From positions 720,001 through 752,000 of the forward strand of contig NC_020304.1 of the NCBI RefSeq assembly GCF_000341395.1: DNA of 32,000 nucleotides. The letters are read 5' to 3'. A program made the position numbers and the translations under genes. The notes under the pieces were generated by a model. It saw only the letters and a program-made list of their open reading frames with translations, made no database searches and was not told the origin of the DNA. The stretch is from Desulfocapsa sulfexigens DSM 10523 (GTDB lineage Bacteria > Desulfobacterota > Desulfobulbia > Desulfobulbales > Desulfocapsaceae). Positions 3,920 through 20,359 of this stretch are shown one piece after another; the first letter of the stretch is position 1; every line of letters begins with the position of its first letter.

Positions 3920-5332
3920 CTATTGAAAGAGTAGCATGACATTAAGACTGGGGATATGCCACCCTGTTGACATTAAATAAATATAGATTCCAAACAGAAA
4001 AAAATACCCCACCTGAATAAAACGATACTGCCACCAGGCAATAACCCCCTCGAATTCCTCCTCATAAAACTTATCGAGTATGTACAATCCGGCAAGTTCA
4101 CTTACAAACATAATGGCAAGACCATAGGCAGGGTACACCCATTCCGGGACAGCGACTGTCAACGATTCCAATGCTTTTACTCCGAATTGCCTTCCAAAGG
4201 TCGGGAGAAAATCCGTAAAATTTCTGACCGTAAAGTTCAGTCTGCTTACCAATTCACCTCCAAAGGCAAGGGGCAGCAGAATTGGTACCATGGGAGAAAA
4301 ACGTCCCATTATTTCATCATTAAACACCCCGAACATGAGGTCACCATAGATGATAACAACATAAAGAATACTGAATCCGAGAAATAGTGGAACTGCGTAC
4401 AACCCCATCTGACAAACCCAACCATTCATGCAGGCTGATTGGATATTTTCCATTAAATTAAAAATATTCTGATCCAGCAAACGGGCAAGCTGAGATCCCA
4501 TAAGAAAAGGGATCATCAGGGTACAGCTTATAAGTCTTCCTTTTCGTATGATAAGTTCGGACAGTGGATGACGTATATTCAATTGCGGGGAGTTATGGTC
4601 ACAGAGGTGCATACAACGTCCACAGACAAGACATTCCAAATTATTAGTCACTTTATACGCGCCCAAAGAAACCGGGCAGCCAGGTTCCATCTCTGTTCCC
4701 CTGTTACAGGCAAATGTTGTACATTGTCTGCATGCACTGTGATCTGGCCTGAATTCAATCAACGAAATTGACGCCCCTATCCCCATTAACCGTCCCAGCG
4801 GACAGAAATATTGGCACCAGGCCTGTTTTGAGAACAGCATTGCACAGAAGGTTGCTCCGCCCAATATAATGAGAAGCAGCCAGGTGGTTTCTTTTGGGCT
4901 GTCCTTCATTCCAGTGGCCTCTTCCACCCAGATAATCGCCATAAAGAAACAAACTGAAATGGTGACACTGTTTTTTATCAGTATCTTTGGAACTTTTTTT
5001 TCAAGAGAAAGATGCCAGGTCTGAAGAAATTTACCGGCCACTGGAAAAGGGCAAACCCCACACCACAATCTGCCGACAAAAAAGAGGCTCAATATGACTG
5101 ATGGCCACCACACCCCCCAGCAAAGATACAGTATGATGTTGCTTCCGGGTGCTTGAGGTCCAAAAAGCCCGGAAAGAATCAAAACAAGAAAAAGTACAAC
5201 AAGGAATGTCTGCCAGATATGATGGAACCGCTGATTATAAAAGAGTCTCTGTAACCAGGGGAAAGTCTTGAAAAGATCGCATTTTTGTCCAGGGTCAGAG
5301 AACAACTTTGAGCACAAATTGAAAATATTCAA
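3920..5332 (-). CDS. NapH/MauN/CcoG-like polytopic membrane 4Fe-4S protein
   Basis: Two membrane-proximal CxxCP motifs (WCGVCPFP, WCQYFCPLG). They are followed by two ferredoxin-type Cys clusters (CRQCTTFAC..CP and CLVCGRCMHLC) and further C-terminal TM helices. The only start for the full ORF is TTG at 5332, 2 nt after the upstream stop. Confidence 0.75.
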   Translation of the reverse strand: MNIFNLCSKLFSDPGQKCDLFKTFPWLQRLFYNQRFHHIWQTFLVVLFLVLILSGLFGPQAPGSNIILYLCWGVWWPSVILSLFFVGRLWCGVCPFPVAGKFLQTWHLSLEKKVPKILIKNSVTISVCFFMAIIWVEEATGMKDSPKETTWLLLIILGGATFCAMLFSKQAWCQYFCPLGRLMGIGASISLIEFRPDHSACRQCTTFACNRGTEMEPGCPVSLGAYKVTNNLECLVCGRCMHLCDHNSPQLNIRHPLSELIIRKGRLISCTLMIPFLMGSQLARLLDQNIFNLMENIQSACMNGWVCQMGLYAVPLFLGFSILYVVIIYGDLMFGVFNDEIMGRFSPMVPILLPLAFGGELVSRLNFTVRNFTDFLPTFGRQFGVKALESLTVAVPEWVYPAYGLAIMFVSELAGLYILDKFYEEEFEGVIAWWQYRFIQVGYFFLFGIYIYLMSTGWHIPSLNVMLLFQ

Positions 5333-5334
5333 TT

Positions 5335-5937
5335 TTATTTCGCCTTACTTCTCACCGAAAGACAGCGCTTTTTAATCTGAAAACCGACTATCAAAGAAGC
5401 AATATAACTCAACAAAAAGAGCAGAGTGACAGAAACACCCTCCATACCAAATGGTTTGGAAGGAAGAAGAAAGAGATAGGCTTGTCCAGAAACTACGGGC
5501 AACACGTGTTCGTCCAGACTGCTGTTAAGCCAGGCCATAACCAGAAAAAGAGGCAAGAGATAAATCAGGACGTAGCGGAAGTAATGCTGAGCGAGATAGG
5601 TATTAAAATCTTCATCAATGGATTGATCGGCAGAGGTGTAAAGGGCATCTCTACTTCTTGGGTCCGGAATAATGGCGATGGTATCCCTTTCCGCCTTCTG
5701 GACAGTAAATTTCTCACGAAATGCTTTCTCCCTGACCTCGACTTTCAGCCACCTTCGGAGACAAAAGGCAAAGCCAACCGTGCAGATTGCAACAATAACA
5801 ACTTGCCCACTCGGAGGCAAAGAGAGAGCAGACAAACTATCCAGGAAAAAGAAATCGAAGACGTCCCTGACGCCAAGAAACAGCGGTTGCAGCATTCCAT
5901 AATAAATGAAATCAAGAATGGTGTTTACTACCTGCAT
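5335..5937 (-). CDS. Hypothetical integral membrane protein (about 3-4 TM helices with a charged helical segment after TM1)
   Basis: Hydrophobic segments VVIVAICTVGFAFCL, YVLIYLLPLFLVMAWL and VTLLFLLSYIASLIVGF. Same strand as, and 2 nt from, the downstream gene. No recognisable family. No obvious SD at the ATG. Confidence 0.5.
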   Translation of the reverse strand: MQVVNTILDFIYYGMLQPLFLGVRDVFDFFFLDSLSALSLPPSGQVVIVAICTVGFAFCLRRWLKVEVREKAFREKFTVQKAERDTIAIIPDPRSRDALYTSADQSIDEDFNTYLAQHYFRYVLIYLLPLFLVMAWLNSSLDEHVLPVVSGQAYLFLLPSKPFGMEGVSVTLLFLLSYIASLIVGFQIKKRCLSVRSKAK

Positions 5938-6070: not shown

Positions 6071-7762
6071 TTAACGCATGAACCAAAGAAGTCCGGTATA
6101 CTGCATGAAGGTTAGAACTAAGGCGCCAGCAAGCAGCCGTTTGAGCAGAATCTCTGGCATTTTTTTCTGCAGTTTCGGACCAACCACACCACCACACATG
6201 GCACCAGCTGCGATAAGGGCTGCCATGATCCAGTCAGGCTGGTAGCCCATCATGACATATTTTGCAATACCACCAACCGAGGTGGAAAAAGCTCCAGCGA
6301 GTGCAATGGGCACTGCCAGATACATTGGATATCCTACCATTGTTGTCATAAAAGGCATAAACATAAAACCACCACCTACACCAAAGGAAGAGGCTATAAT
6401 TCCCATGACAACACCACCTAACAGCATCAACAGTGGCTTGGCCAAAAAGGTTTCACCCCAAAAGCGCATCTCAAATTTAATGGGATGAAACTTATCAAAT
6501 TCAATGGAACCCAGCTGCATGGCTTTGCCGGACTCTTTGGCTTCTTTTACCGCCGCATTAAATTTCTGGACAATGGCCTTCATTGCCTTTTTCTTCTCAA
6601 TGGAACTGGGCAATGACTCAACATATAATTTAATACCTATAACCAGACAGATTAAGCCGAGATAGAATTTAAAAGCAGCAAGATTCAGATATTTTGCTGA
6701 AAGTGGGGGACCAATAAAGAAAGCACCAATCACGATACCAATGGCAAATGGAATAGCCACGGGATAGGCAAACCGTTTTTCTTTGAGATAACTGAGCAAT
6801 CCACTGATGGGAGAACAAAGAGTAAGAAACAGGTTTGTGGGCTTAATGGTATTACCGGCGTTAATACCGATGGGACCATTGGTTCCAATAGCGGTAATCT
6901 GAAATGCCGCAGTAAACAGACCACCGGCTGCTCCCATAATAACAAAAAGAACACCGATAACAAAGGCACCACCAAAAACTACCAGCGGATTCATGTAAAC
7001 ATTACCTGTCTTAAAGAAAAATCCTGATTTCTCAATACTGAATGTATCAACCTTCGTCCCGTTCACATAGACGGCCATCACTGTATCGGGATAGAGATTT
7101 TTGTAGGGAGACATGGAGACGGAAAATTTTCCGGTGGCCTTGTCAAGACTTACCGAAACGCCGGTATTCCAAACCTCAGCCACAGTAGCATAATCACCCA
7201 GAACCATCCGGGCATTCCCACCAGTACTTGGCTTTTCTTTCACGATGGTATTCATCCCAAATCTATCCTCATGGGCGTAGGTCACCATCTTCCATTGCTC
7301 TTCAGTTGTTACAGAACCCAACATAGTCCGTATGGACGGATCAATATCAGTCCATGCTTTAATCTTGTTTACCCTGACATCGTACTTGAATGGTGGAAAA
7401 GCAAATATGCCAGAAGTCTGCCCTTTCGGTGAAACTTTAGGGGTTGCCAATGCTTCGGGATTACTGGTGACAATATAATACGATGGCGGGATAGCAGTTT
7501 CACCAAAAACGTTCTTCCCATCCTTCCCCTCCATCAGACGCTTCCTTTCTTTGGGCCCCGGAGCATCCTTTGCCGAAAACAGCTTATCCGTAGCAATGAC
7601 AACAAAAAGTTCCTGACCCGGATCGATATTTCCGGTAACTCCAATGGCGTCTCCTGCCGTAACCTTTTTCGTGCTTAAGGTGCCATCAACTGCCATGGCA
7701 TTGCCACTCACAAAGGCCATACCTACGACGAGGACAACTAAAAGTAATAAAATTCGCTTCAT
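6071..7762 (-). CDS. TauE/SafE (DUF81) family anion permease with a ~240-aa N-terminal periplasmic domain
   Basis: Strong SD (AAGGAGGGAG) before the ATG. Signal peptide MKRILLLLVVLVVGMAFVSGNAMA, then a hydrophilic beta-rich domain of unknown family. Gly-rich TM repeats (IMGAAGGLFTAAF..., SSFGVGGGFMFMPFM) typical of TauE/SafE, split by a charged cytoplasmic loop. Confidence 0.7.
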   Translation of the reverse strand: MKRILLLLVVLVVGMAFVSGNAMAVDGTLSTKKVTAGDAIGVTGNIDPGQELFVVIATDKLFSAKDAPGPKERKRLMEGKDGKNVFGETAIPPSYYIVTSNPEALATPKVSPKGQTSGIFAFPPFKYDVRVNKIKAWTDIDPSIRTMLGSVTTEEQWKMVTYAHEDRFGMNTIVKEKPSTGGNARMVLGDYATVAEVWNTGVSVSLDKATGKFSVSMSPYKNLYPDTVMAVYVNGTKVDTFSIEKSGFFFKTGNVYMNPLVVFGGAFVIGVLFVIMGAAGGLFTAAFQITAIGTNGPIGINAGNTIKPTNLFLTLCSPISGLLSYLKEKRFAYPVAIPFAIGIVIGAFFIGPPLSAKYLNLAAFKFYLGLICLVIGIKLYVESLPSSIEKKKAMKAIVQKFNAAVKEAKESGKAMQLGSIEFDKFHPIKFEMRFWGETFLAKPLLMLLGGVVMGIIASSFGVGGGFMFMPFMTTMVGYPMYLAVPIALAGAFSTSVGGIAKYVMMGYQPDWIMAALIAAGAMCGGVVGPKLQKKMPEILLKRLLAGALVLTFMQYTGLLWFMR

Positions 7763-7805: not shown

Positions 7806-9464
7806 TCATTTTATTTCTACAATTTTTGCATCCCCAACGTACTCTCTACTTTCAAAACCCGTCATACTTGTCATCTTTTGCGTCAGAACACCAATCTCCT
7901 TCAAGTTTCTGACAATCGTTTTTACGTCATCAATCAAATCCTGATTTTCCAGATCTTCTTCGAGGAGCTGCGCTGTTCCCAGAGCAGCAAAAAGTGGTGA
8001 ATTTATCTCATGGGCAACGGTTCCGGCAAGCTCGACGACCCCCTGAAGTTTTACCCGCTCCAGTTGTTCTTCCTCCAGCTGCCTCTTGGCTGTAACATCA
8101 CGTATCACTTCAATGACATACTCCACCCCTCCATCCGGACCCAGCATAGGGGAGGCTGTGCGCTCACACCAATGCACATCAGAACCCTGCAATATCCTGT
8201 GAGTAAAAGTTGCACTTTTTCCTGTCTCCAAAACTCTATCTACAGGGCAATCCTCTCTCATGCAGTCCTGATCCTGCCAGAGGCCATCATAATCACACCC
8301 CAGAAGGTCATTCTCAGAACGATTCATTACTTCCTGGAAAACCTTATTCACCAGGATCAGATGTTTTCCTTTATCGACCACCAATAACTGCGGCCTGATG
8401 CAATCCAAAATATTTGAAAGAAACCGCTCATTCTCCTCTATCTGATTAAACAGCAGCGTGATCTGCTGATACGTTTTAGCGTTGCGAATGGCAACGCCAC
8501 CAACCTCCGCAGCAGTGACTGCAAAATTAATTTCACTACTGGTAAAGCAATGTGAGACATCAGAGAGGATGCGCAACACGCCGATGACATCATTCCCCGC
8601 CTTGATCGGTACGGAAAGAAGTGACTTAATCCCCTCCTCCTCCATGTTTTTTTTGTAAAAAATCCGGTTATCCTGCCTCACGTCAAAGATAGAGACAGGA
8701 GAACCGGACAGAGCAGCCTCCACGTTCTTTTCATTCTCAACATCTCCCCGCTGCAGATATGTCTCAGACAAGCCGTAGGAGGCTACCAGTTCCAGCTGGT
8801 TACTCTGGGATTGAAGGAGACGTATGGAGCAGCCCTTACACCCAAGTGACTGGGGCAAACGTTCGACGATGGTGTCAAGCACTGCCGACAGATCAAGGCT
8901 GGAACTCACAAGAGTGGAAAGTTCCTGGATCTCCTTCATGAAATCCACCTGATTTTCCATCTCTGTAAACATCCTGCTGTTGGAGATCGCAATTCCAACC
9001 TGTTCCGCAAGGGCCATGGAGAATGAGATTTCATCCGCTGTAAAAATCCGCTTGTCTCGAGTAAGAAGACGAAGCATCCCGATAATTCCATCCTGAAAGA
9101 TAATGGGTAGAGTGAGAATTGACTTTACCCCCTCACTCTGCACCAGTTTCTGGTCATTATGACTGAATTCCTGATCCAGATCAGTCTTCGCTACGGGATA
9201 GCCGGAGCGGATCATCTCCATTGTTTCATCCGTGTCAATACTGATACGGGAAAGATACTCCAGCGAAAGACCATGAGCAGCCCCCATGACAAACTGACCG
9301 GTCTCGGCATCAAGCAGGCGGATGGTTGCTGCGTCTACTGCCATAAGGTCAGGCAGACTGCGGACGATGGTATCCATCACCTGTTGATGATCAAGAACCA
9401 TTGAGGTCAGCTTGGTCACCTTCTGGAAAACCTTGATGTACTTCTGTTCCTGTAACAGCGTCAT
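7806..9464 (-). CDS. GAF-GAF-PAS-HisKA signalling protein lacking an HATPase_c catalytic domain
   Basis: Two GAF-like repeats (…ILTLPIIFQDGIIGMLRL… and …LLSVPIKAGNDVIGVLRI…), a PAS region, and the H-box VAHEINSPLFAALGTAQLL. The protein ends ~65 aa after the H-box. Only 43 nt remain before the next gene, so no N/G1/G2 boxes are encoded. Confidence 0.8.
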   Translation of the reverse strand: MTLLQEQKYIKVFQKVTKLTSMVLDHQQVMDTIVRSLPDLMAVDAATIRLLDAETGQFVMGAAHGLSLEYLSRISIDTDETMEMIRSGYPVAKTDLDQEFSHNDQKLVQSEGVKSILTLPIIFQDGIIGMLRLLTRDKRIFTADEISFSMALAEQVGIAISNSRMFTEMENQVDFMKEIQELSTLVSSSLDLSAVLDTIVERLPQSLGCKGCSIRLLQSQSNQLELVASYGLSETYLQRGDVENEKNVEAALSGSPVSIFDVRQDNRIFYKKNMEEEGIKSLLSVPIKAGNDVIGVLRILSDVSHCFTSSEINFAVTAAEVGGVAIRNAKTYQQITLLFNQIEENERFLSNILDCIRPQLLVVDKGKHLILVNKVFQEVMNRSENDLLGCDYDGLWQDQDCMREDCPVDRVLETGKSATFTHRILQGSDVHWCERTASPMLGPDGGVEYVIEVIRDVTAKRQLEEEQLERVKLQGVVELAGTVAHEINSPLFAALGTAQLLEEDLENQDLIDDVKTIVRNLKEIGVLTQKMTSMTGFESREYVGDAKIVEIK

Positions 9465-9481
9465 AAAACTGTTATATCCCG

Positions 9482-12331
9482 TCAGATTTTTTCAATCTTT
9501 GTCTTGATATATTTCAAAGGCGGCGTTGCCGTCCATTTACATGTTGTATTCGGCCTCAGTAACATATTGGTATTAAATCCCTTGTACTGCGGGTATTTCG
9601 GATCACCTTCAAGTCCATACTTATGACCGAATCCACCGGCGGCAGCGAGTACACCCTGACGAATTCCCCAGGTAACATTGGCAACAGCCTCCACAGAGGC
9701 CCAGGGTGAAGTGATTTTCACTGCGTCGCCATTGGCAATTCCAAGTTCCTTGGCATCGACGTAATTAATCCACACAGGATTGCTTCCGCAGGCCTTCATC
9801 AGAGAAACGTTCCAGAAGGTGGAAGTGTGTTCATGCTCAAGAACCCGGAAAAAACCAGTGATCATGGGAAACTCCTCATCAGGCTGCAATTCAGGCCAAT
9901 CTTCCCAGGGATCCTTGTAATCAGGAAGTCCATCCACTCCGTTTTCTTCTGCAAGAGGATTCATGAAATTGTACTTTCCTGTTTTAGTGTTACCAGATGA
10001 TCCGTAACCGGCAGGTGGATTCATGGAACCCCATTCCTTATATTTGTAATACTCATGCCCGTCGGTGATGTGATAACCAACCTTGCGCAGCTCTTCCAGA
10101 GTAATTGGCTGATTGGAAAGCTGGTTTTCCAGGAACTCATCCTCGTTCTTCCAGGGGAAATATTCACCGTAGCCCAGGCGTTTGGCAATTTCCTGAAAAA
10201 TGGAGACCACTGATTTTGAATCGTACATCGGTTTGATGGCCCGCTGGAAAAGCGAGATAAAGGATTCATACATCCAGTCAGCAACCACCCGACTCTGTTC
10301 AAGATAGGTGCAGTCTGGCAACACCACATCACAGAGTTCAGTTGTGTTGGACATGTAACAGTCGATGGAACATGAGAATTCCAGTTTTTCAATGGCCCGT
10401 TTGACAGATGGCTCACTTCCGCAGGACATAACAGGATTACCAAAGTAGCAGAGCATGGCTTTGAGTTTTCCTTCATCCACATCCTTTTCAAAATAGGCGG
10501 GGATCCATCCACTCCAGAGATGGCCCTTATCAAGCTTTGTTTTAGGTGCATTGTTTGGTGGTTTAGGCTGATCGTCACTCCAGGCTGAAGCCAGTTTTTT
10601 CTTACGAATAAGAGACGGCCCACCGGGTGCATCAAAGGTACCCATCAGCCCGTTCATGGCAATAAGCGCCTGGGTGGCGTGCAGGGTATTCGGTGCCTGG
10701 GTGACACCGGTCCAGCTGTTGGTTCCAACAGCCGGTGCAGCAATGGCAAACTCATGGGCCAGACGGGTAATAGTTCCCGCTGAGATACCACAGATTTCAG
10801 CAGCCCATTCAGGAGTGCGAACGATACCGTCTTCTTCACCCATAAGACGTTTTCTGAACGCCTCAAAGCCATAGGTCCAGTTTTCAACAAAGTCTTTGTT
10901 GTAAAGATCTTCTTTCACAAGTACATAGCACATTGCCATGGCCATGGCGCCATCGGTTCCCGGCTTGATGGCTATCCATTCCGAAGCAATATTTGCAGTT
11001 TCACTACGCCTTGGATCGACCACCACCAGTTTGGCACCACGCTTGACTGCCTTTTTCAAATCGGCAACCTTACGCTGTCCCGCCGAAGTGGCCAGTTCAT
11101 TGATACCAAAAAGCATGATAAATTCTGAGTTTTCGTAATCTATCCAGGGACGCTTCTCACTGAAGTTTTTCTCGTTAGCCATACGTGCCGGATTATCACA
11201 CATCTGCCTGTGAGTGACTTTGTTCGGAGTACCGTAGGCTGCCATAACGGCTTCATGGCACCAGTTATTAAAATCATTGCCACGGTGAAAACCGACTTCA
11301 GTTGGATCGATCCGTTTCAGATTTTCCACGGTGCGGTCAAGGGCTTCTTCCCAGCTGGCCTTACGGAATCTTCCATTTTCCTTGATCAGTGGACTCTTCA
11401 GTCTGTAGGCAGAATATGTATTGTGGTGTGCATTGGCGCCCTTGATGCAAAGTCTGCCCCCCCCCTTTGGATCCCCAGGAAGTCCCTTACAGCCGGTAAT
11501 GATGTTATCTTTCACCCTCACCTCCTGTCCACAGAGGCCGAGACAGATGAAACAGTGCGATTTGACACTCTTCAACTTCTCCGGTGCAACGGTACCCTCT
11601 TCAAGAGTGACATACTCATCGCCAAGCTCAAGTGCGGCTATGGCCTGACTCATATGTTCCAGGATAAAACCGTAGGATTCATCAGTGGCCTGCTGGGAGA
11701 GCATGGCAAAGCTGAACATCCGCTCGTTGAAAAGAAAACTCATGGTGATCTCAGCAAGCCCCCGATAAAACTCAGTCTTGGCCGCACTGGTAAGCACCGC
11801 TGAGAACTCTACCACCCAACTCATAAGATGATTTCGCAGGAAATCAAATTCAGGCTCCTGTTTCACTCCTTTATAGGCCGCCTGTTCGGCAAAGTGACGC
11901 ATGAATTCAAGCTCGGCTGCGATATGATCATCCAGGTCAAGAAAGTCTTTATTCTTATGCAAGCCTGCGGCATTCAGGGCTTCACGCATCTTCACAACTG
12001 GTTCCTGCATAACAAGAGGTTCCCGGGTGGAATAGCAGGACTCGTAGGGAAAGGCTGGATTGTTACCGGCATTGAGAAAGAGATCCGCATATTCATAGCG
12101 CAGTTCATTGAATACTTCTTCTGCAGATGACGATTCAAGAGTACCGCGCATACGGCCAAGGCCTGAACAGAAATCCTGAATGGTACACACTTCCTGTAAT
12201 TTCTTTATCTGGCCAAGAAAAGCTCCTCCACCCATCTTTTCAATAAGCCACAGAGGCACTTCGTCCCGATAGAGGGTGGAAAGGAACTGGTAAATTTTTG
12301 CCCTGGCCAGATTTGTCGCTTTAATATCCAT
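9482..12331 (-). CDS. Fusion of a TorD/DmsD-like redox-enzyme maturation chaperone domain and a molybdopterin (bis-MGD) oxidoreductase catalytic subunit; no Tat signal
   Basis: aa 1-215 carry TorD-family motifs (YEYADLFL, FPYESCY, DDHIAAELEFM). aa 260-295 carry the MopB N-terminal 4Fe-4S motif CFICLGLC...RLC. Typical MGD-binding blocks follow (KLVVVDPRRSETA, AIKPGTDGAMAMAM), then the C-terminal molydop-binding domain (ANGDAVKITSPWASVEAVANV). SD AAGGAGAG precedes the ATG. Confidence 0.85.
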   Translation of the reverse strand: MDIKATNLARAKIYQFLSTLYRDEVPLWLIEKMGGGAFLGQIKKLQEVCTIQDFCSGLGRMRGTLESSSAEEVFNELRYEYADLFLNAGNNPAFPYESCYSTREPLVMQEPVVKMREALNAAGLHKNKDFLDLDDHIAAELEFMRHFAEQAAYKGVKQEPEFDFLRNHLMSWVVEFSAVLTSAAKTEFYRGLAEITMSFLFNERMFSFAMLSQQATDESYGFILEHMSQAIAALELGDEYVTLEEGTVAPEKLKSVKSHCFICLGLCGQEVRVKDNIITGCKGLPGDPKGGGRLCIKGANAHHNTYSAYRLKSPLIKENGRFRKASWEEALDRTVENLKRIDPTEVGFHRGNDFNNWCHEAVMAAYGTPNKVTHRQMCDNPARMANEKNFSEKRPWIDYENSEFIMLFGINELATSAGQRKVADLKKAVKRGAKLVVVDPRRSETANIASEWIAIKPGTDGAMAMAMCYVLVKEDLYNKDFVENWTYGFEAFRKRLMGEEDGIVRTPEWAAEICGISAGTITRLAHEFAIAAPAVGTNSWTGVTQAPNTLHATQALIAMNGLMGTFDAPGGPSLIRKKKLASAWSDDQPKPPNNAPKTKLDKGHLWSGWIPAYFEKDVDEGKLKAMLCYFGNPVMSCGSEPSVKRAIEKLEFSCSIDCYMSNTTELCDVVLPDCTYLEQSRVVADWMYESFISLFQRAIKPMYDSKSVVSIFQEIAKRLGYGEYFPWKNEDEFLENQLSNQPITLEELRKVGYHITDGHEYYKYKEWGSMNPPAGYGSSGNTKTGKYNFMNPLAEENGVDGLPDYKDPWEDWPELQPDEEFPMITGFFRVLEHEHTSTFWNVSLMKACGSNPVWINYVDAKELGIANGDAVKITSPWASVEAVANVTWGIRQGVLAAAGGFGHKYGLEGDPKYPQYKGFNTNMLLRPNTTCKWTATPPLKYIKTKIEKI
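11457..11465. repeat. C9 (G9 on the coding strand) homopolymer inside the oxidoreductase gene
   Basis: Plus strand is ccccccccc. It encodes K-G-G-G (AAG GGG GGG GGC) between Cys3 and Cys4 of the FeS motif. Confidence 0.95.
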
Positions 12332-12346
12332 AATACTCTCCTTTCC

Positions 12347-12733
12347 TCACACGCTCATAGCGCTTTTATTGCCTCTTGATTTCAGGACTTTCTCAACTTT
12401 TTCTTCGAGCTCATCACGATCAATGGGTTTGACACAATATTCATCGGCGCCAAGGCTTATTGCTTCACGGGCAGTTTCAACCGTTGGGTAGCCGGTGAGC
12501 ATAATGGCTTTTATGGATGGCTGGACCTCTTTAAGAAAACCCAGAACTTCGACCCCACTCATCTTTTCCAGCTTTATATCTAGAATGGCAAGATCCACAG
12601 TGTTCTCCTTGGCATAGGCGATGGCCTTATCCTCTTCGGTAAAGCAGTGTACCTTATGTCCTTTTTTAGAAAGAATTTTTCCTATCAGTACCGTTGCATC
12701 CTGCACATCATCTAGAGTCAGTATCTCAGCCAT
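12347..12733 (-). CDS. Single-domain response regulator (CheY-like receiver)
   Basis: 128 aa. Receiver motifs LAILDIKLEKMSG (phospho-Asp) and IMLTGY...A...GADEYCVKP. SD AAGGAG. Confidence 0.9.
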   Translation of the reverse strand: MAEILTLDDVQDATVLIGKILSKKGHKVHCFTEEDKAIAYAKENTVDLAILDIKLEKMSGVEVLGFLKEVQPSIKAIMLTGYPTVETAREAISLGADEYCVKPIDRDELEEKVEKVLKSRGNKSAMSV

Positions 12734-12761: not shown

Positions 12762-14348
12762 TCAAAATTGTTCCAGATTTAAGTCTTCATTTACAGACGG
12801 GGATTCCCGCAGTGTAACCGGTAATTTCACATGGAAAGCAGTGCCCCTTATCTTCTCGCCACCCCTCCCCTTCACAGGACTCTCGACCTCTATTGTCCCA
12901 CCGTGTTCTTGTACAATGCCGTAGGAGACAGATAGTCCCAGACCGGTACCTTTTCCTACGGACTTGGTGGTGAAGAAAGGATCGAAAATCTTTGTCACAA
13001 CATCCTCAGGGATTCCATGCCCCGTATCACGTACCGTGGCCACCACCCGGTTAGATTCCTCTTCATATCGGCTGGAAAGATATATATCACCGCCGCCGTC
13101 TTCTTCCATGGCATGGTGGGCATTGTTGATAAAATTGACAAAAACCTGACGCAATTTTTCGGTATCACCCACAATCGCTGGCAAATTATCACTGAAATCA
13201 CGGTGGGCATGGATATGATCCATATTCAGAGAATGTTCTGTCACAGCCAGGACATCTTCCAGTACCTCGTTTATTTGAATATTTTCACGGGCACTTTCCG
13301 ACTGCCGGGAAAACTTCAGTAAATCGGCTACTATTTTGCGGCAGGCTTTGGCCTGTCGTTCAATAACCTGAAGACTTTGTCCCTCCTCACTGTCAGGACT
13401 GAAATCATCCATCATCAGTTGAGAATACCCAAGAATTACACCAAGAGGAGTATTAATCTCATGGGCAACTCCGGCTGCCATCTGTCCCACCGATGCCATT
13501 TTCTCACTGGATGCAAGCTGTTCCATCATGGTTCTGACCCTGGTAAGATCCTTGGCAATCCCCTCACATCCTATAAAATTCCGTTCCTCATCATAAACCG
13601 CAGTTGCAGAAAGAAGGACATAGATTACACTCCCATCAGCCCGAACAAATTCAACTTCCAGATCCTCAACAAATCCTACGGCAATCAGGGTTTCAAAATA
13701 CTTTTCCAGATCATCTTCATTACAAAAAATATTCTGCAATGTAAGATTCCTCTCGTCTTCCATGGTATATCCAAGCATTTCCAGACCTGCCGTGTTCATA
13801 TTGACCAGCCTGTTCACCGAATCACAAAAATAAACCATATCCTTGGAATTAATAAAAAAGTTCCGGAATTTCTTTTCCGAAGCAGAGAGCTTTTTAGTGC
13901 GCTGTTCCACCATCTCTTCAAGATTTGCGTTCATCTTCAGCAACTTATCGGCAGAGACCTCCAGTTGTTCATTGGCCTCCTTTAAGCTTTTTGCTTTTTG
14001 CTGAATTGCACGAAACCCTTCTATCCCTTTGTGGTAATAGATACTTACTGCCGCAAGAGAGATCATTAACAGGGTGTTGAAGCCACCTGAGTAGGGAGCA
14101 AGAACATGCCACTGTTCCGTATTGTCAGCGATCAGAAGTAATTGTTTAAGAAGGTGCCCAACGGCCCTCGAAACGGAAAAGCAGACCAGAGTCAGGCAAA
14201 AATAGAAGAGAAATCCCCAGAGAAAATTTTCGGGTTGTTTACGAATCAGGAGCCAGGCATAACGCAGCGAGAGAAACGACAGCACAATAATAATAAAAGA
14301 GCCAACCATATCGACAAGAATGGCTGGAAGCATGATAAGACTGGTCAT
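12762..14348 (-). CDS. Membrane-bound PAS sensor histidine kinase (HisKA + HATPase_c)
   Basis: N-terminal multi-TM region, coiled coil and PAS domain. H-box [21 protein letters not shown]-box [10 protein letters not shown]1 DTGHGI, G2 GKGTGLGLS. The start overlaps the upstream stop (ATGA). Confidence 0.9.
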
Positions 14349-14818
14349 TCCTTCTCCTCCTCACAACTGCTGCGATAGATGCCCTTCATAGCAAGATAGA
14401 GAAAATAGAGAGCTGGAACGCTGAAAAGATGGTCAAGCTTAGTGAAATAAAACCAGAGCTTTACATTGGTGAGTGGTCCCTGAAGTCTGGTGGTCAGATA
14501 GCCTCCTTCACGGGTGAAATGGACACTGTCTACAAATGCAGCAAGAGAATGTCCTGTAAAGGCCACAATATTCCAGAGTATCATAAAAACACAACAAATC
14601 TGGAGATAACGCCATCCCTGAGACTTGAAGGCACTCTGGCGAATCCCCCAGATGAGATAACACATAGCAGCAGTATAAAAGATATGGGCCAATTGATGAA
14701 CGTATAAACCCTCCGGAGCACCGTGACTTTGTACAGCCCAGGCGTTCTCAGGAAACACAGTCAGCGTCATTAGGAGGAGAAACGGGGACATTCTGTGCGT
14801 TGTTTTAAGAAAGTTCAT
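14345..14818 (-). CDS. Small membrane protein of unknown function (signal peptide plus ~3 TM), translationally coupled to the kinase
   Basis: N-terminus MNFLKTTHRMSPFLLLMTLTVFPENAWA resembles a signal peptide, followed by hydrophobic helices. First gene after the sigma-54 promoter. 4-nt overlap with the kinase gene. Confidence 0.55.
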   Translation of the reverse strand: MNFLKTTHRMSPFLLLMTLTVFPENAWAVQSHGAPEGLYVHQLAHIFYTAAMCYLIWGIRQSAFKSQGWRYLQICCVFMILWNIVAFTGHSLAAFVDSVHFTREGGYLTTRLQGPLTNVKLWFYFTKLDHLFSVPALYFLYLAMKGIYRSSCEEEKE

Positions 14819-14905: not shown

Positions 14906-14922
14906 TTGCACATACGGTGCCA
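14906..14922 (-). promoter_or_regulatory. Sigma-54 (-24/-12) promoter
   Basis: Minus strand reads TGGCACCGTATGTGCAA, against the consensus TGGCAC-N5-TTGCW. GG and GC have the exact canonical spacing. It lies ~85-100 nt upstream of the ATG at 14818 and directly downstream of a sigma-54 activator gene. Confidence 0.7.
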
Positions 14923-14961
14923 CATTTAGGCACAAATAAATTATTTCACACTAAAACGAAA

Positions 14962-15029: not shown

Positions 15030-15056
15030 ACCGCATCGAAAAAGATGCACCGCATC
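15030..15056. promoter_or_regulatory. Candidate enhancer (UAS): repeated ACCGCATC with interleaved GATGC inverted repeats
   Basis: ACCGCATC occurs at 15030-15037 and 15049-15056. GATGC at 15044-15048 forms GCATC-N6-GATGC and GATGC-N3-GCATC palindromes. GATGCAC recurs at 15171-15177. The site lies 110-135 nt upstream of the -24 element. Confidence 0.4.
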
Positions 15057-15245
15057 AAAAACAGTGCAATGTTGAGTGTTGTGGATACTGCTGTAGGACA
15101 ACTGCTTAACGCAGATTTCACTAACAAACCATGAAAAGGAATACTATCGGAACACTGGTGCCACAAAACAGATGCACTCTTAAATGTAAGGAGGATGACC
15201 TCTCAGGGTACTGCGTGATACCTTAAGGTTCACTGCAGTGCGAAA

Positions 15246-16670
15246 TCAGCCTCTGAATGGCTGGGAACTCACCTTGAAACGCTGCATCAGGCGCTGGAAT
15301 GACTGCCGCCCCAATCCACTTTCACGAGCTGCAGCAGAAACATTCCCATTACTCATAGTCAGAGCTCTTTCCAGATAGGTCGAAGTGAAAGTAACCATCA
15401 CTTCTTCTTTTGCTTCGTTATAGGGAAGCTGATACACACACACAGGAACCTCAACTCCTCTTTTATCTTTCAAACCGTCCTCTTCCAGCTCTTCCGGGCT
15501 AAGAAGATCCTTGGGGGTGATTATATCGCCAGGGGTGAGCAGAACAGCGCGATTGATCCGGTTCTGCAGCTCACGGACATTCCCCTTCCACTCTCTGCGC
15601 TCCAGACATTTCAGTGCCTCCTGAGAAAATTCCATGCCTTCCCGGTGGTACTCCTGCACATAAATATTGAAAAAATGAAGCGCCAGCAGAGGTATATCTT
15701 CCCGTATCTCTTCCAGTGAAGGCATGGTAACCGTCATCACATTTAGACGATAAAAGAGGTCTTCCCGGAATTCTCCTCGCTCCATCTTCGCTTCAAGGTC
15801 CTGGTTGGTTGATGCAAGTACTCTAACGTCAACTTTCACAGTACTGGTCTGCCCCAGAGGCTGTATTTCTTTTTCCTGCAGGACACGCAGCAGTTTGGTC
15901 TGGAGTGAAACGGGAATATCGGCGATTTCATCAAGCAGGATCGTGGAACCCGACGCCTCAAGGAAGAGTCCGTCTTTATCATGATCAGCTCCGGTGAATG
16001 CGCCCTTGGCGTATCCAAAAAGCTCGCTCTCCAGGATCTGTTCGGGCAGAGCTGGACAGTTCACCGTGATCATTCTTTTCTTTCCGCGATTGCTCATTTT
16101 ATGAATGGTCCTGGCTGCGACTTCTTTCCCGGTTCCGGACTCTCCACGAATCAGGACTGTTGCGTCACTCTGCCCCAGTCTGGTCAGAAGATCTATTGCC
16201 CGTTGCAGGGGAACACTCTGACCGATAAACTCAGTGGTTTTGTCACTTTTTTGCAGCTCCTTATGCAATTGCTGATTCTCACGAAGCAGTTGTGTACGCT
16301 CAAATGCACGCAGAATAATCAAACTGATTTTGGAGTTATCAAAAGGTTTTTCAAGAAAATCGTAAGCCCCGTTTTTTAGAGCTGTCACCGCCATTTCTAT
16401 GGTTCCATAGCCCGTCATGATCACGACACTGATGGTTCTGTCTAATTCAGACACCCTGCTCAAGAGCTGCAGACCATCCATGTCAGGCATAACAATATCT
16501 GTCATGATCACATCCGGATGCCAGGATGCGATTTTCTCCAGAGCTTCCTTACCGGACCGGGCAATGGCCACATCGCACCCACATTTTTTTCCTAGAACCT
16601 TGCGCAAAAGAATCAGCAAATCCTTTTCATCATCTACTATCAATAACCGCCTGTTCTTGTCGGCCTCCAT
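15246..16670 (-). CDS. Sigma-54-dependent response regulator (NtrC family: REC - AAA+ - Fis-type HTH)
   Basis: Receiver domain (LLIVDDE..., VIMTDIVMPDMDG). Walker A GESGTGKE. The exact sigma-54 contact motif GAFTGA. C-terminal HTH GNVSAAARESGLGRQSFQRLMQRF. Confidence 0.92.
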   Translation of the reverse strand: MEADKNRRLLIVDDEKDLLILLRKVLGKKCGCDVAIARSGKEALEKIASWHPDVIMTDIVMPDMDGLQLLSRVSELDRTISVVIMTGYGTIEMAVTALKNGAYDFLEKPFDNSKISLIILRAFERTQLLRENQQLHKELQKSDKTTEFIGQSVPLQRAIDLLTRLGQSDATVLIRGESGTGKEVAARTIHKMSNRGKKRMITVNCPALPEQILESELFGYAKGAFTGADHDKDGLFLEASGSTILLDEIADIPVSLQTKLLRVLQEKEIQPLGQTSTVKVDVRVLASTNQDLEAKMERGEFREDLFYRLNVMTVTMPSLEEIREDIPLLALHFFNIYVQEYHREGMEFSQEALKCLERREWKGNVRELQNRINRAVLLTPGDIITPKDLLSPEELEEDGLKDKRGVEVPVCVYQLPYNEAKEEVMVTFTSTYLERALTMSNGNVSAAARESGLGRQSFQRLMQRFKVSSQPFRG

Positions 16671-16675
16671 ACCTT

Positions 16676-17632
16676 CTAGACCTCTCTCGTATCCCGTGTA
16701 GCCTGGAAATATTGCTGTACAAAACGCCCGGATACAGTATCAACAATTGAAAAATGCAGCACATCGCCAGATGGAAATGAATCGGTCAAGGCAAGAAAGA
16801 CATCTCTGGAGATCTTTGTCGATATTGTAGTCAATGTCTTTTTCTTCTCCAAATCTGTAATATTGCGGCAACGCAGAGGACGCCTGTCGCAAATCAGACA
16901 ATTGCCTTCATCTAAAAGAGGGCAAAGATATGTTGAGGCAGATTTTTTCTCAAGCGCTCGTTCAAGAACAGTTTTACGCTTTTCCCGGCTGAGTTGTGAA
17001 TTGATAACATGACTGACATAGACCGCTTCAATCAGTTGCAGATCAAAGGAATGGCTGCAGATCGCCGTGTCAAGCGGAGGGGTGCCAGCCTCGGCAAGCA
17101 ATGCCTCATAATCATGAAAAAATGGCTGCAGATCTATTGTGCTCGGGTTTTCTATAGTTGCCTCCCTTGCATCCAGCTGTCCCTGCTGCTTACTGTATTT
17201 CTTGAGGAGTTTCCACTGACTGTAGTTAGTGGGATTGGCCCTGGTTCCTTTGAGTGTTTTCTCGGTGTACTTAAGAGCCAGCCCCCGTCGTAGAAAATAA
17301 GCGGAGATAAAGGTACCCGTCCGGCCATGCCCGTGACGACAATGAACAAGAACCTTCTTCTTTAAATAAAGAGCTTCATCCAGCCACTCCAATGCCTCTT
17401 TCATTTTCTCCAGATCCGGGGCACACTCATCCGGAGTGGGAAGGAAAAAAACCTCAAAACCAGACTGTTCCTCAATCTCATGCAAATCGGTGAATTCTCC
17501 GCAGAGATTAACTATTGCCCTGACCCCCTGATCCCTGATAGAATCAAGCTCATCGTATGACATGGGTGCATACCCGACTGCCAGCTGGCTGGTTAACCAT
17601 GTAAGTTGATATGACATGTTTTTTTCTTTCAT
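16676..17632 (-). CDS. Dual-specificity (Cys-based, CX5R) phosphatase fused to a Cys-rich YkgJ/UPF0153-like C-terminal module
   Basis: P-loop VHCRHGHGRTGT (HCX5R) in the N-terminal ~150 aa. C-terminal YLCPLLDEGNCLICDRRPLRCR resembles the Zn/Fe-chelating YkgJ-type motif. The ATG lies 1 nt after the upstream stop. Confidence 0.75.
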   Translation of the reverse strand: MKEKNMSYQLTWLTSQLAVGYAPMSYDELDSIRDQGVRAIVNLCGEFTDLHEIEEQSGFEVFFLPTPDECAPDLEKMKEALEWLDEALYLKKKVLVHCRHGHGRTGTFISAYFLRRGLALKYTEKTLKGTRANPTNYSQWKLLKKYSKQQGQLDAREATIENPSTIDLQPFFHDYEALLAEAGTPPLDTAICSHSFDLQLIEAVYVSHVINSQLSREKRKTVLERALEKKSASTYLCPLLDEGNCLICDRRPLRCRNITDLEKKKTLTTISTKISRDVFLALTDSFPSGDVLHFSIVDTVSGRFVQQYFQATRDTREV

Positions 17633-17633
17633 A

Positions 17634-20087
17634 TTAATGAGCAGCCTCCCAAAATAACTTCACTTGTTCCTCAACCATATCCTTGTCTTTCAAGCGCATA
17701 TCCATCAGCTTCGTTACTCCCAGGAGGCGCCCCACAATCTGCAGCTTTTGCTCCATCACCTCTCTAGGTATCTGTTGCAGTCTGGCATCGAGTAAATCGC
17801 CCCTGGGAGTGACCTGAAATCCACTCTCCGACAAAATGGCAGTAACATAGTCTATTCGCAGACTCCGGCCGGAAAAATCTCCACCGCCTCCCGCAAAACG
17901 CAACTGACAATAATTTTTGGCCATATCCTGGTCACACATGGCATCAACAAGGGTAAAATGATACCCAAATCGCATATTGAGGTTCACGTAATTACTTCCC
18001 AGCACCGCAAAACTGGCAAATTCCGATGAATCTTTACTGGCAACACCACCAGCCAGTGCAATTTCATCAAAACTTTTCCAATCAAAATGAGATCTTTCCC
18101 CCCACTCCACACTGGGGTGGGTCAATCCCAGCCACAGGGAAAGAAAAGGGGTTGAGGAAATCTCAGCTACGTGGATATCCTTGCCCCCTCCCTTCTTCTC
18201 CTGTAGCCCGCCCCCCACATCCAGCAAAAAAACATCGAGAGGAAGATCGGTACGTAATCTCCGTTTCCCTTTTGACCTGCCACTCCCTCTGTCCCCAAGA
18301 GAAAACATAGTTCGCACCGCCTGCTCATGAGAAAACCGGATAATATCGTGGAGAGAACGACAGGATTCCGGGACAAAGCTTTTGGCCTCCGGATCAAGTA
18401 GATTCAGAGGAGTTACAAATCCAAGAAGACCGTGGAGTCGCCGAAAATAGGGCAGTGCTGCCTGCGTTTCATGGAGCGGTACGGGCTTTTCTTCCGACAA
18501 ACAGTTTCCCTGCCATAATTCCTGAATATCTGCAAAAAGACTTATCTCATCATCATGCTTGATTTTGTTGATGCTGTCCCCTATAGCCAGAAGCAGAGGA
18601 ACTCCAAACTCCCTGCACACTGTGGAAAAATGACCGGCCACAGAACCCAATTCTGCCACCACACCACCAACTTGTTTCAAAATACGGACAGCAGAGGGCA
18701 GGGTCTCTCGTAACACGAGAATTGCCCCCTGAGGTACATTTTCCAGTGGATGTTCAGAATCAACGACGTATGCCAATCCACAGGCCTGGCCCATTGCTGC
18801 TGTCACCCCAGCCTTAAACAGCAGGCGACCTTTGTGAGCCAATGGTTTCGCTGTATTAGCAACGACCATTGTTTCCTGGATGCCAAGAGGCCTGCTTTGC
18901 AAAAAGATAAGACGTCCTTCCCTGGTGATTGACCATTCCACATCCCTTGGTGATTCAAAATACTCTGCAATGCGCTTTCCCTGTTTCTGCAGGTGAGCCA
19001 GTTCCGAATGTGACAGGATCTGGGTGTTTTTGTATTCATTTTCTTCACTGTCTTTCATTGCATAAGACTCAGGAATCACTCGGCCACTGACAAGGGCATC
19101 TCCCTGGCCACGCACAACATGAACAGAAATATCTTTTTGTTTTTTTCCAGATGGTTCGGCGGTATACAAAACACCACTGGCCTTTGCATCCACCATCTCA
19201 AGAACCAGGACAGCCATGGCCGTCTCCTCATCTCCAAGCCCCGAATGAATACGATAGGCCAGAGCTTCAGGACTATATTTACTGCTGATAACCTTGAGCC
19301 AGGCATCAACGATTGTATCCCCGGCTACATTGAGCAGGGTGAGATACTGTCCCGCAAATGAACAGGCTCCATCCTCACTGAGACAGCTGCTACGCACTGC
19401 TACAAGCGGATCATTTTCAAACTCAGCGGGGAACTTTTTCCAGGACGCAGTAATTGCTTCACTGATTTCAGCAGGAATATCGCCTTCCATAATCAAATCC
19501 ACCAGCTTAGCAGAGGCCTTCACCAGGCTCTGGGGGTTCACACTTTTGATGCTGCAGAGAATGTCATCAACGGGCCTGCGAAGATCATTATAGGCCATAA
19601 AATAGTTGAAGCTATTTGCTGTAATCACAAAGCCCTTAGGCGTAGGGAGGTTAAGTTCTGAACTGAGTGTCGCCAACTGTGAAGCCTTTCCCCCGACAAG
19701 ATCATCCCGTCCGGCTCCTTCCTGTAGAGAACAGACAAAGGGAGGAGAACTGTTCAGTTGGGGGGGGGCCAGCAGAAATTTACTGTAAAAATCAAATTTT
19801 TTATAATAGCTTCTCAGGGTCACATGGGCCCCGGGAGCCATTTTTTCGAGACTGTCCACCATCCCCAGAACATTTGCCGAGAAACTTTCGTAGCGTTTAC
19901 GAATGCTGCTGAAATCTTCTTTAATCCCTAGGTAGTACAAAGCCTCAAGCTCCGCCATCTCCTCATGGGTCCTCCCGTCATACTCGAGAAGTTCCTGAAA
20001 GGACTCATACGTTGAGCGCAATACTGCTCCCGGAGCAAAAACTCTGTATGTCCAATATTTAAACAAATTATTAACCAGCATCAGCAA
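17634..20087 (-). CDS. PEP-utilising-enzyme-like dikinase (ATP-grasp PPDK_N domain + swivelling phosphohistidine domain + unassigned C-terminal domain)
   Basis: GGKASQLATLS...PKGFVITANSF is the nucleotide-binding domain of PEP synthase/PPDK-type enzymes. The central mobile domain carries the catalytic-His motif GSVAGHFSTVCREFGVPLL. I cannot recognise the last ~300 aa as the PEP/pyruvate TIM barrel. Start is TTG 20087 or ATG 20081. Confidence 0.8.
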   Translation of the reverse strand: MLMLVNNLFKYWTYRVFAPGAVLRSTYESFQELLEYDGRTHEEMAELEALYYLGIKEDFSSIRKRYESFSANVLGMVDSLEKMAPGAHVTLRSYYKKFDFYSKFLLAPPQLNSSPPFVCSLQEGAGRDDLVGGKASQLATLSSELNLPTPKGFVITANSFNYFMAYNDLRRPVDDILCSIKSVNPQSLVKASAKLVDLIMEGDIPAEISEAITASWKKFPAEFENDPLVAVRSSCLSEDGACSFAGQYLTLLNVAGDTIVDAWLKVISSKYSPEALAYRIHSGLGDEETAMAVLVLEMVDAKASGVLYTAEPSGKKQKDISVHVVRGQGDALVSGRVIPESYAMKDSEENEYKNTQILSHSELAHLQKQGKRIAEYFESPRDVEWSITREGRLIFLQSRPLGIQETMVVANTAKPLAHKGRLLFKAGVTAAMGQACGLAYVVDSEHPLENVPQGAILVLRETLPSAVRILKQVGGVVAELGSVAGHFSTVCREFGVPLLLAIGDSINKIKHDDEISLFADIQELWQGNCLSEEKPVPLHETQAALPYFRRLHGLLGFVTPLNLLDPEAKSFVPESCRSLHDIIRFSHEQAVRTMFSLGDRGSGRSKGKRRLRTDLPLDVFLLDVGGGLQEKKGGGKDIHVAEISSTPFLSLWLGLTHPSVEWGERSHFDWKSFDEIALAGGVASKDSSEFASFAVLGSNYVNLNMRFGYHFTLVDAMCDQDMAKNYCQLRFAGGGGDFSGRSLRIDYVTAILSESGFQVTPRGDLLDARLQQIPREVMEQKLQIVGRLLGVTKLMDMRLKDKDMVEEQVKLFWEAAH
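19760..19768. repeat. G9 (C9 on the coding strand) homopolymer inside the dikinase-like gene
   Basis: Plus strand is ggggggggg. It encodes A-P-P-Q (GCC CCC CCC CAA) at codons 107-110 of 817. Confidence 0.95.
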
Positions 20088-20359
20088 TCACGCAATAGCT
20101 ACAGGGAGGATACGAAAGGATGCCCTCTCAAAACCTTTTTCAGCTTCTTTGTTGCTCTACATTATTACTATACGAAAACACAGATCAACCCAATAGTTTT
20201 ATGTTTATGCTCACTGATAAATTTACAGTGCCACTCCCACCCAACTCAATCCAGCCCAAAAATACGGTTTTTCTTCGGTTTTAATGGAATCTATTTCTCT
20301 GCCATTGTATGGTAATCTTCATTAACCAGTAAGAGATAACACGGTGGGGTCTTATCTGA

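Follow-up and report, generated by a model that had tools for sequence, protein, structure and literature searches.

Enzymes of the pyruvate phosphate dikinase (PPDK) family transfer the beta-phosphate of ATP onto a His residue of a swivel domain, and this His domain then swings to the C-terminal domain. In glucan water dikinase (GWD), the His domain precedes the nucleotide-binding domain. EIIB proteins of the phosphotransferase system (PTS) are Cys-phosphate carriers with a P-loop like that of protein tyrosine phosphatases (PTPs). Here, we analyzed a dikinase-like gene and its surroundings in a 32,000-nucleotide (nt) stretch of the genome of Desulfocapsa sulfexigens DSM 10523 (NC_020304.1, positions 720,001 to 752,000; hereafter, the window). 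Coordinates are positions in the whole window, and window features lie on the minus strand unless indicated otherwise. NCBI and the Joint Genome Institute (JGI) name the encoded protein phosphoenolpyruvate (PEP) synthase or pyruvate, water dikinase. In the genome paper of D. sulfexigens, three enzymes (UWK_00627, UWK_02176, and UWK_02650) are given as PEP synthases and counted towards glycolysis/gluconeogenesis (PMC3739170), and the window dikinase is probably one of them.

The dikinase-like gene (20087..17634) is followed by a dual-specificity phosphatase (DSP) gene (17632..16676, 318 aa) and a sigma-54 activator gene (16670..15246, 474 aa), all three assigned from the open reading frame (ORF) list and Pfam. 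An earlier reading of the window from its letters and ORFs (the sequence-only reading) had described these genes as tightly packed, and the ORF coordinates agree, with spacers of 1 nt between dikinase and DSP and 5 nt between DSP and activator. Genes encoding a 157-aa membrane protein, a PAS-HisKA-HATPase kinase, a 128-aa receiver, and a molybdopterin oxidoreductase lie 3′ of the activator gene in this order, followed by those for a GAF-GAF-PAS-HisKA protein, a TauE-family protein, and further genes. Our analysis indicates that the three genes are half of a conserved signaling cassette, the other half being the adjacent sigma-54-dependent operon. The cassette is real, widespread, and apparently undescribed, and is built from known superfamilies and two novel domains; no description of a kinase-receiver-dikinase-phosphatase module was found in the full-text literature searched. 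We propose that the dikinase and the DSP, coupled to a receiver, write and erase phosphate as one output branch of a two-component pathway, a proposal for which we judge the chances to be even.

The window dikinase is neither a PEP synthase nor a PPDK

The dikinase gene encodes 817 aa from a TTG codon, and the deposited database protein is 815 aa long, with its start at the ATG at codon 3. The ATP-grasp and swivel-His domains that had been recognized in its translation were both detected by Pfam as PPDK_N (PF01326, 2e-67) and PEP-utilizers (PF00391, 3.5e-13). Within the ATP-grasp nucleotide-binding domain (18828..19712; Pfam and alignment), GGK134, R232-S-S, E238-D239, FAGQ247, E384-W, and Q397-x-R399 were invariant in a 24-sequence alignment (A1). 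The swivel domain (18537..18734, residues 452-517 of 817; Pfam) carries the phospho-carrier His486 (codon 18632..18630) in the motif GSxAGH, and this residue was also invariant in the 24 sequences. By BLAST, a true PEP synthase containing the PEP-utilizers_C barrel (PF02896) aligned with dikinase residues 122-548 only, including its catalytic His, which lined up with His486.

The position of the TIM barrel is held by a novel alpha/beta C-terminal domain of ~280 aa (17637..18485), delimited by an AlphaFold2 model and conservation and presumed to bind the acceptor. PF02896 had no match in the dikinase in Pfam even at E <= 10, and the last ~300 aa matched no Pfam family at this threshold and no PDB sequence. 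The model of residues 520-817, based on an 87-sequence alignment, had a mean predicted local distance difference test (pLDDT) score of 84.7 and begins with a helical segment, after which antiparallel sheets pack against helices; it has no (beta/alpha)8 barrel. When this domain was compared with the PDB using Foldseek, the best match had E = 0.025 and a template modeling (TM) score of about 0.2, and no PEP synthase or PPDK was among the matches. H580, D581, R584, H587, P616, G654, Y700, H710, G733, G734, R744, G786, and D796 were invariant in the 87 sequences, which extend down to ~32% identity. This pattern, with its His, Asp, Arg, and Gly residues, suggests a binding or catalytic site rather than a spacer. 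An exhaustive HMMER search found the domain in 1142 cluster representatives at 50% identity, and among the best 150 of these it was C-terminal to the dikinase core wherever the gene was complete. At the opposite end of the protein is an all-helical domain of ~125 aa (19713..20087) specific to this dikinase family, for which AlphaFold2 predicted four helices (pLDDT 89); it had no Pfam match, and Foldseek against the PDB gave nothing significant.

The NCBIfam scores of the dikinase were 234 bits vs 598 (NF005057) and 230 bits vs 740 (TIGR01418) for PEP synthase, and 48 bits vs a cut-off of 843 for PPDK. With a new domain in place of the TIM barrel, the dikinase is neither of these two enzymes; an ordinary PEP synthase or PPDK with a normal C-terminal domain would have refuted the sequence-only reading. 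The PEP synthase annotation of the window protein is probably wrong.

Several candidate relationships of the two novel domains were rejected. His41 of the N-terminal domain was considered as a relay residue like those of HPt or DHp domains; in 14 of 79 family members, this position holds Leu or a different residue, and the His is absent in Desulfobaculum, which has the full set of kinase, receiver, dikinase, and DSP, and Foldseek with the N-terminal domain returned no HPt or DHp fold. A degenerate HisKA_3/GHKL origin of the C-terminal domain, suggested by its LHD, DxGGG, and GGGG motifs, had no backing from Pfam, PDB sequences, or Foldseek. Foldseek matches of this domain to arginine kinase and to type III secretion system (T3SS)-chaperone/YbjN-like folds were not significant (E >= 0.025, TM about 0.2-0.38).

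The dikinase and the DSP are a conserved pair

The product of the second gene, previously read as a CX5R dual-specificity phosphatase, falls into DSP-type Pfam families (DSPc, 40.9 bits vs a cut-off of 33.5) and has the motif HC98RHGHGR104T (HCX5R) together with D68. D68, C98, and R104 were 100% conserved in 65 DSP orthologues; from these residues, the phosphatase looks catalytically competent, and because the general-acid Asp is kept, it resembles a hydrolase more than a carrier. In a PDB sequence search, its closest solved relatives were small protein phosphatases, namely archaeal PTPs (Tk-PTP) and DUSP23. The C-terminal half of the DSP (17152..16679) is rich in Cys, and each of C192, C237, C245, and C255 was at least 98% conserved in the 65 orthologues. 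This tail weakly matched CxxCxxCC/YkgJ (PF03692, UPF0153; 14.2 bits vs 23, E = 0.072). Of the YkgJ pattern, the orthologues keep the C-terminal half-motif C-P-L-x5-C-x5-R-P-x2-C-R plus C192, and JGI labels relatives of the DSP as 'protein-tyrosine phosphatase/Fe-S-cluster containing protein'. A defence or toxin system, hinted at by the names of the DSP Pfam families, was considered and rejected, as PADLOC gave no matches for the dikinase, the DSP, or the 157-aa protein.

We scanned one genome per GTDB species and analyzed the best 80 of 222 relatives, all belonging to Desulfobulbales. A lack of conserved adjacency outside D. sulfexigens had been set beforehand as refuting the sequence-only reading; in fact, the DSP gene was found directly 3′ of the dikinase gene in 60 of the 71 loci with enough downstream sequence. 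The activator gene came next in 50 of 62 loci, extending its linkage to the order, and DSP and activator were both present in 48/62. Thirty-two loci had full 10-kb flanks; the DSP was found in 30 of them, the activator in 26, the orthologous kinase in 25, the 157-aa protein in 25, the single-domain receiver in 26, and the molybdoenzyme in 21. The kinase-receiver-molybdoenzyme block was located upstream rather than downstream in several genomes, with the linkage kept. Two metagenome-assembled genomes (MAGs) each have two complete paralogous cassettes (L011/L040 and L047/L049). Each set comprises the dikinase, DSP, activator, 157-aa protein, kinase, and receiver, the paralogous sets are ~49% identical, and a different molybdoenzyme lies beside each; D. 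sulfexigens itself has a dikinase paralogue (P0110) of 49% identity. The gene order, which recurs in dozens of species-level genomes, is not due to chance.

A metagenome scan was seeded with a diverged clade about 40% identical to the window dikinase and yielded 80 loci (38-47% identity to the seed; one locus, 66%). The DSP gene was 3′ of the dikinase gene in at least 65 of 68 loci of this distant clade. Six proteins (P0167, P0206, and P0270-P0273) combine dikinase, DSP, and Cys domain in one chain. In P0238, a dikinase relative is joined to an N-terminal low-molecular-weight PTP (LMW-PTP), which has a different Cys-phosphatase fold and is an analogous replacement of the DSP. Adjacency in two diverged clades and the at least six fusions bear out the meaningful pairing supposed earlier, and these comparisons of sequence support the view that dikinase and DSP are a true functional pair. 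P0238 belongs to a sister branch of the dikinase family (14 of 149 family representatives, P0225, P0226, P0233, and P0242 among them) that has a C-terminal extension of ~200 aa resembling ConA-like lectins/glucanases by sub-threshold Pfam matches. The neighbors of three sister-branch loci (L083-L085) are transporters (GDT1, TerC, MFS, and chromate).

A single-domain receiver and a histidine kinase accompany the dikinase

The membrane-bound PAS-HisKA-HATPase_c histidine kinase (12762..14348; Pfam) is conserved next to the cassette and is presumed to be the cognate kinase of both receivers. It is the only complete kinase (HisKA plus HATPase_c) of the window, located in the downstream operon as the sequence-only reading had it. 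The accompanying claim that the operon lacks a kinase holds for the three genes themselves; it does not hold for the cassette, of which the conserved cognate kinase in the adjacent sigma-54-dependent operon is part. The 128-aa single-domain receiver (12347..12733; Pfam) has D8/D9, D52, T80, and K102, which were kept across 89 receiver sequences, and much of its length is strongly conserved.

In 34 of 47 loci of the distant clade, the dikinase gene had a single-domain receiver gene as its direct neighbor, which lay upstream in the same orientation or downstream in convergent orientation and usually came with a kinase gene; a few loci have a convergent block of activator, kinase, and 157-aa protein instead. 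All 40 of 40 dikinase-adjacent receivers were closer to the window 128-aa receiver (median 148 bits) than to the receiver domain of the activator (48 bits), and by this measure the dikinase-adjacent receivers of other lineages are orthologues of the window 128-aa receiver. At L086, genes for a periplasmic binding protein, an sCache kinase, and a single-domain receiver form an operon with that for a dikinase-DSP fusion, and YeeE/TusA sulfur-transport genes adjoin. The operon of Desulfobaculum xiamenense encodes a binding protein, kinase, receiver, dikinase, and DSP. Neither operon includes an activator gene, and activator-free operons of this kind are found in Desulfovibrionales. Receiver, dikinase, and DSP genes are together in Desulforhabdus amnigena. 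In an Acidithiobacillales MAG (L169), the receiver gene overlaps the start of the dikinase gene and a TauE gene adjoins, and in a Sumerlaeia MAG, the dikinase gene is accompanied by a convergent receiver gene and a dCache kinase gene; both loci lack the DSP. Directly upstream of the receiver and dikinase genes, L169 also encodes a 511-aa protein (4078-5613) whose sole recorded Pfam match is PEP-utilizers and which is a candidate for an additional swivel-His protein of a relay.

The most constant companions of the dikinase are therefore the receiver and the kinase, followed by the DSP, and the activator is a frequent, lineage-specific addition. The coupling to a sigma-54 activator stressed in the sequence-only reading is conserved in Desulfobulbales; however, it is not specific, because complete kinase-receiver-dikinase-DSP operons exist without an activator, and kinase plus single-domain receiver are near-constant instead. 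The sensors vary (an sCache kinase with a periplasmic binding protein vs the 157-aa protein with a membrane kinase), and the receiver, dikinase, and DSP are constant. Because the sensor parts differ between lineages and these three do not, we favor an output rather than an input role for the pair.

The sigma-54 activator, its predicted promoter, and the adjacent operon

The activator was recognized earlier as an NtrC-type regulator, and Pfam confirmed this architecture (Response_reg, Sigma54_activat, AAA_lid_14, and HTH_8); GAFTGA, D58, T86, and K108 are present in its translation. The activator needs no non-canonical phosphodonor because its receiver is canonical. The sigma-54 promoter expected just downstream of the activator gene was located by a motif scan as a -24/-12 element, TGGCACcgtatGTGCA (TGGCAC-N5-GTGCA, 14907..14922), and such an element precedes the orthologue of the 157-aa-protein gene in 35 of 42 related loci. 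Two tandem palindromes, GCATC-N6-GATGC (15033..15067), lie about 125-145 nt upstream of the -24 element; their half-sites hold position and their spacers vary in the 9 closest loci. These palindromes are probably binding sites of the activator, and comparison of related loci revealed a third, weaker GCATC-N6-type site (15160..15175). A hairpin at 15046-15068 was rejected as a plain terminator and read as tandem activator sites because the half-sites rather than the stem are kept in relatives; it may be both terminator and activator site. A 15-nt inverted repeat (TTTAGGCACAAATAA/TTATTTCACACTAAA, 14925-14955) abuts the -24 element and is a candidate binding site for IHF or a repressor. Upstream of the dikinase gene, a sigma-70-like promoter candidate (TTGATC-16-AATAAT, 20161..20188) was identified by consensus match only.

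The first gene of the sigma-54-dependent operon encodes the 157-aa multi-pass membrane protein (14345..14818) and overlaps the kinase start by 4 nt. Neither Pfam nor NCBIfam has a family for this protein, which is conserved in 50 loci and is probably a sensor partner of the kinase. The molybdopterin oxidoreductase (9482..12331; Pfam) is PhsA/Psr-like with a fused N-terminal TorD/DmsD-type chaperone domain, and molybdoenzyme genes were linked to the cassette in 47 loci. It recalls the MOLY cluster (MolyA plus MolyC), which has been proposed to mark sulfur disproportionation (PMC12998232). The fused-chaperone molybdoenzyme is not accompanied by an obvious separate gene for a chaperone. The TauE/SafE-family membrane protein (6071..7762), a conserved neighbor, has an N-terminal extension of ~260 aa, and the extended gene neighbors the cassette in 44 loci of both clades (also L067, 7494-9209); a shorter, unextended TauE-family gene of 319 aa (L169, 8486-9445) adjoins the Acidithiobacillales dikinase homologue. 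The GAF-GAF-PAS-HisKA protein (7806-9464) ends about 20 aa past HisKA, and because HATPase_c is missing, it would not carry out the usual ATP autophosphorylation; its gene is kept 3′ of the molybdoenzyme gene in 32 related loci. A rhodanese-domain protein (1020-1592, plus strand) and an APH-family phosphotransferase (2826-3908, plus strand) are encoded at the far end of the locus.

Proposed mechanism and alternatives

In the proposed output branch, the kinase at the membrane would sense a signal, probably sulfur- or oxyanion-related in view of the cargo genes, and would phosphorylate both the receiver domain of the activator and the single-domain receiver. The phosphorylated activator would bind the GCATC-N6-GATGC sites and open the sigma-54 promoter, which would supply more kinase and receiver and turn on the molybdoenzyme/TauE genes. 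The phosphorylated single-domain receiver would dock on the dikinase or the phosphatase and set the balance of writing and erasing. As expected from PPDK-family chemistry, the dikinase would load His486 with the beta-phosphate of ATP, and His486~P would swing to the C-terminal domain and phosphorylate a hydroxyl-type acceptor there, from which the DSP would take the phosphate off again. The four-Cys metal site of the DSP may confer redox or sulfur sensitivity.

Several observations weigh against this proposal. Four dikinase-DSP loci of Desulfobulbaceae (L001, L033, L036, and L043) have no two-component genes within 10 kb, and neither do the three sister-branch loci with lectin-like dikinases, L083-L085, have two-component neighbors. 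The DSP is missing at L009, L010, L042, L064, and L067, and 13 of 47 distant-clade loci have no adjacent single receiver. The direction could also be the reverse, with the dikinase feeding the receiver or the pair making the ligand of the kinase. Operon structure, promoter use, and enzyme activities are all predicted from sequence.

The pair might instead act directly on the two-component proteins, which we consider unlikely. In a donor version, phosphate would move in one direction or the other between Asp52 of the receiver and either His486 or a His located on the invariant LHD helix of the C-terminal domain; in an O-kinase version, the dikinase would O-phosphorylate the receiver, activator, or kinase, and the DSP would erase the mark. 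Either version would integrate a second input, such as the adenylate energy charge, into the pathway. The receiver is the most constant neighbor of the dikinase even where the DSP is absent, its gene overlaps that of the dikinase in L169, and its extraordinary conservation over much of its length suggests several partners; the invariant H580-D581 on a long helix of the C-terminal domain and the protein phosphatases closest to the DSP point the same way. However, a canonical kinase is always present, so that a second donor is unneeded, we know of no DSP-type enzyme that hydrolyzes acyl-phosphate or phospho-His, and the candidate His41 is not conserved in modules with kinase, receiver, dikinase, and DSP. 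Foldseek gave no DHp, HPt, or GHKL likeness for either novel domain, and the dikinase-DSP pairs without nearby two-component genes also speak against direct action. It is a doubtful but possible extension that the dikinase represents a new class of signaling kinase, in which an ATP-grasp/swivel-His engine replaces the GHKL ATPase and either exchanges phosphoryl groups with the receiver or O-phosphorylates a protein of the two-component system, with a dedicated Cys-phosphatase as eraser. If true, this would be a third route into two-component signaling, and it could read ATP vs AMP plus Pi.

A metabolic role, which is hypothesis (a) of the sequence-only reading or a variant of it, likewise seems unlikely. 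Here, much as GWD and SEX4 do with starch, the pair would add phosphate to and remove it from a small molecule or polymer belonging to the regulated pathway, such as a glycan or a compound related to sulfur or oxyanions, and would merely be co-located with the regulators. To our knowledge, all characterized barrel-less PPDK relatives phosphorylate small molecules or glucans, and such a role would fit the ConA-like lectin domain of the sister branch, albeit below the Pfam threshold, the loci with only dikinase and DSP, and the recurrent neighbors, which include TauE, a Psr/Phs-like molybdoenzyme with an FeS subunit, YeeE/TusA, and chromate or TerC-type transporters. Yet the cargo differs between lineages while kinase, receiver, dikinase, and DSP are constant, and where an operon consists solely of genes for binding protein, kinase, receiver, dikinase, and DSP, there is no pathway enzyme for the pair to serve. 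Carbohydrate-binding modules are absent from the window dikinase and DSP, and a kinase and a phosphatase acting on one metabolite would run a futile cycle unless it were used for signaling. That the locus is an ordinary gluconeogenic PEP synthase or PPDK beside unrelated genes, with meaningless adjacency, is very improbable: the NCBI/JGI names and the three PEP synthases of the genome paper (PMC3739170) favor it, but the lack of the PEP-utilizers_C barrel, scores below every equivalog cut-off, the conserved gene order, and the fusions effectively exclude it on the sequence evidence.

Comparison with known systems

Many bacterial receivers stand alone, often with targets that are not known; in the present case, a single receiver orthogroup is linked genetically to a dikinase plus a Cys-phosphatase, and the tie between receiver and dikinase spans Desulfobacterota and single genomes of Acidithiobacillales and Sumerlaeia. 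If this link is functional, it would represent a new kind of two-component output or input, and the dikinases would form a new branch of the PPDK family (1142 clusters at 50% identity) with an acceptor domain that has no known fold relative. In sulfur disproportionators, the position of the cassette on a molybdoenzyme/TauE operon offers a handle on the regulation of a poorly understood sulfur metabolism. The findings also bear on annotation, as these dikinase genes are counted as PEP synthases in metabolic reconstructions, that of D. sulfexigens included.

The transcription arm of the cassette is of the textbook NtrC type. As in NtrB/NtrC systems with a branched CheY- or Spo0F-like receiver, a canonical HisKA/HATPase kinase is combined with a REC-AAA+-HTH activator, palindromes lie upstream of the sigma-54 promoter, the kinase operon would amplify its own expression, and a stand-alone receiver has to act through contact or phosphotransfer. 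Unlike in those systems, the stand-alone receiver of the window has a dikinase and a Cys-phosphatase as its genetic partners, and we found no description of such a pair as the partner of a stand-alone receiver in the literature searched. Enzyme I of the PTS and EI-Ntr likewise use a swivel-His PEP-utilizers domain as a mobile phospho-carrier in a regulatory relay. However, the donor side of the window dikinase is an ATP-grasp domain and not a PEP barrel, no HPr-binding domain is present, and neither PEP-utilizers_N nor PEP-utilizers_C was matched in Pfam; the DSP, for its part, keeps a general-acid Asp.

The window dikinase shares with PEP synthase and PPDK the homologous ATP-grasp and central swivel-His domains, their order, and the conserved catalytic His and nucleotide motifs. 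It differs from them in the alpha/beta domain of ~280 aa in place of the TIM barrel, in the extra N-terminal domain of ~125 aa, in the absence of the regulatory Thr before the His (A-G-H), and in a context of signaling rather than central metabolism. Like rifampin phosphotransferase and the group of flavonoid and phenylphosphate synthases, it has lost the barrel, and a hydroxyl on a new acceptor would be phosphorylated. Rifampin phosphotransferase and its group have an inserted substrate domain ahead of a C-terminal His domain, whereas the His domain of the window dikinase is central; the score of the window dikinase against NCBIfam RPH (NF041857) was 170 bits vs 999, and the group has no phosphatase or two-component partner. 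GWD with SEX4, LSF2, or laforin likewise combines a swivel-His dikinase and a DSP-fold phosphatase, as would suit a cycle of writing and erasing, and the below-threshold lectin-like domain of the sister branch adds to the likeness. The window pair differs in domain order and in being hard-wired to a histidine kinase and a receiver, and neither the dikinase nor the DSP has a carbohydrate-binding module or lectin domain by Pfam. The likeness to GWD/SEX4 is one of analogy only: for the window family, the genomes show the genetic pairing of dikinase and phosphatase and their fusions, and action of both enzymes on one non-protein substrate would be a prediction.

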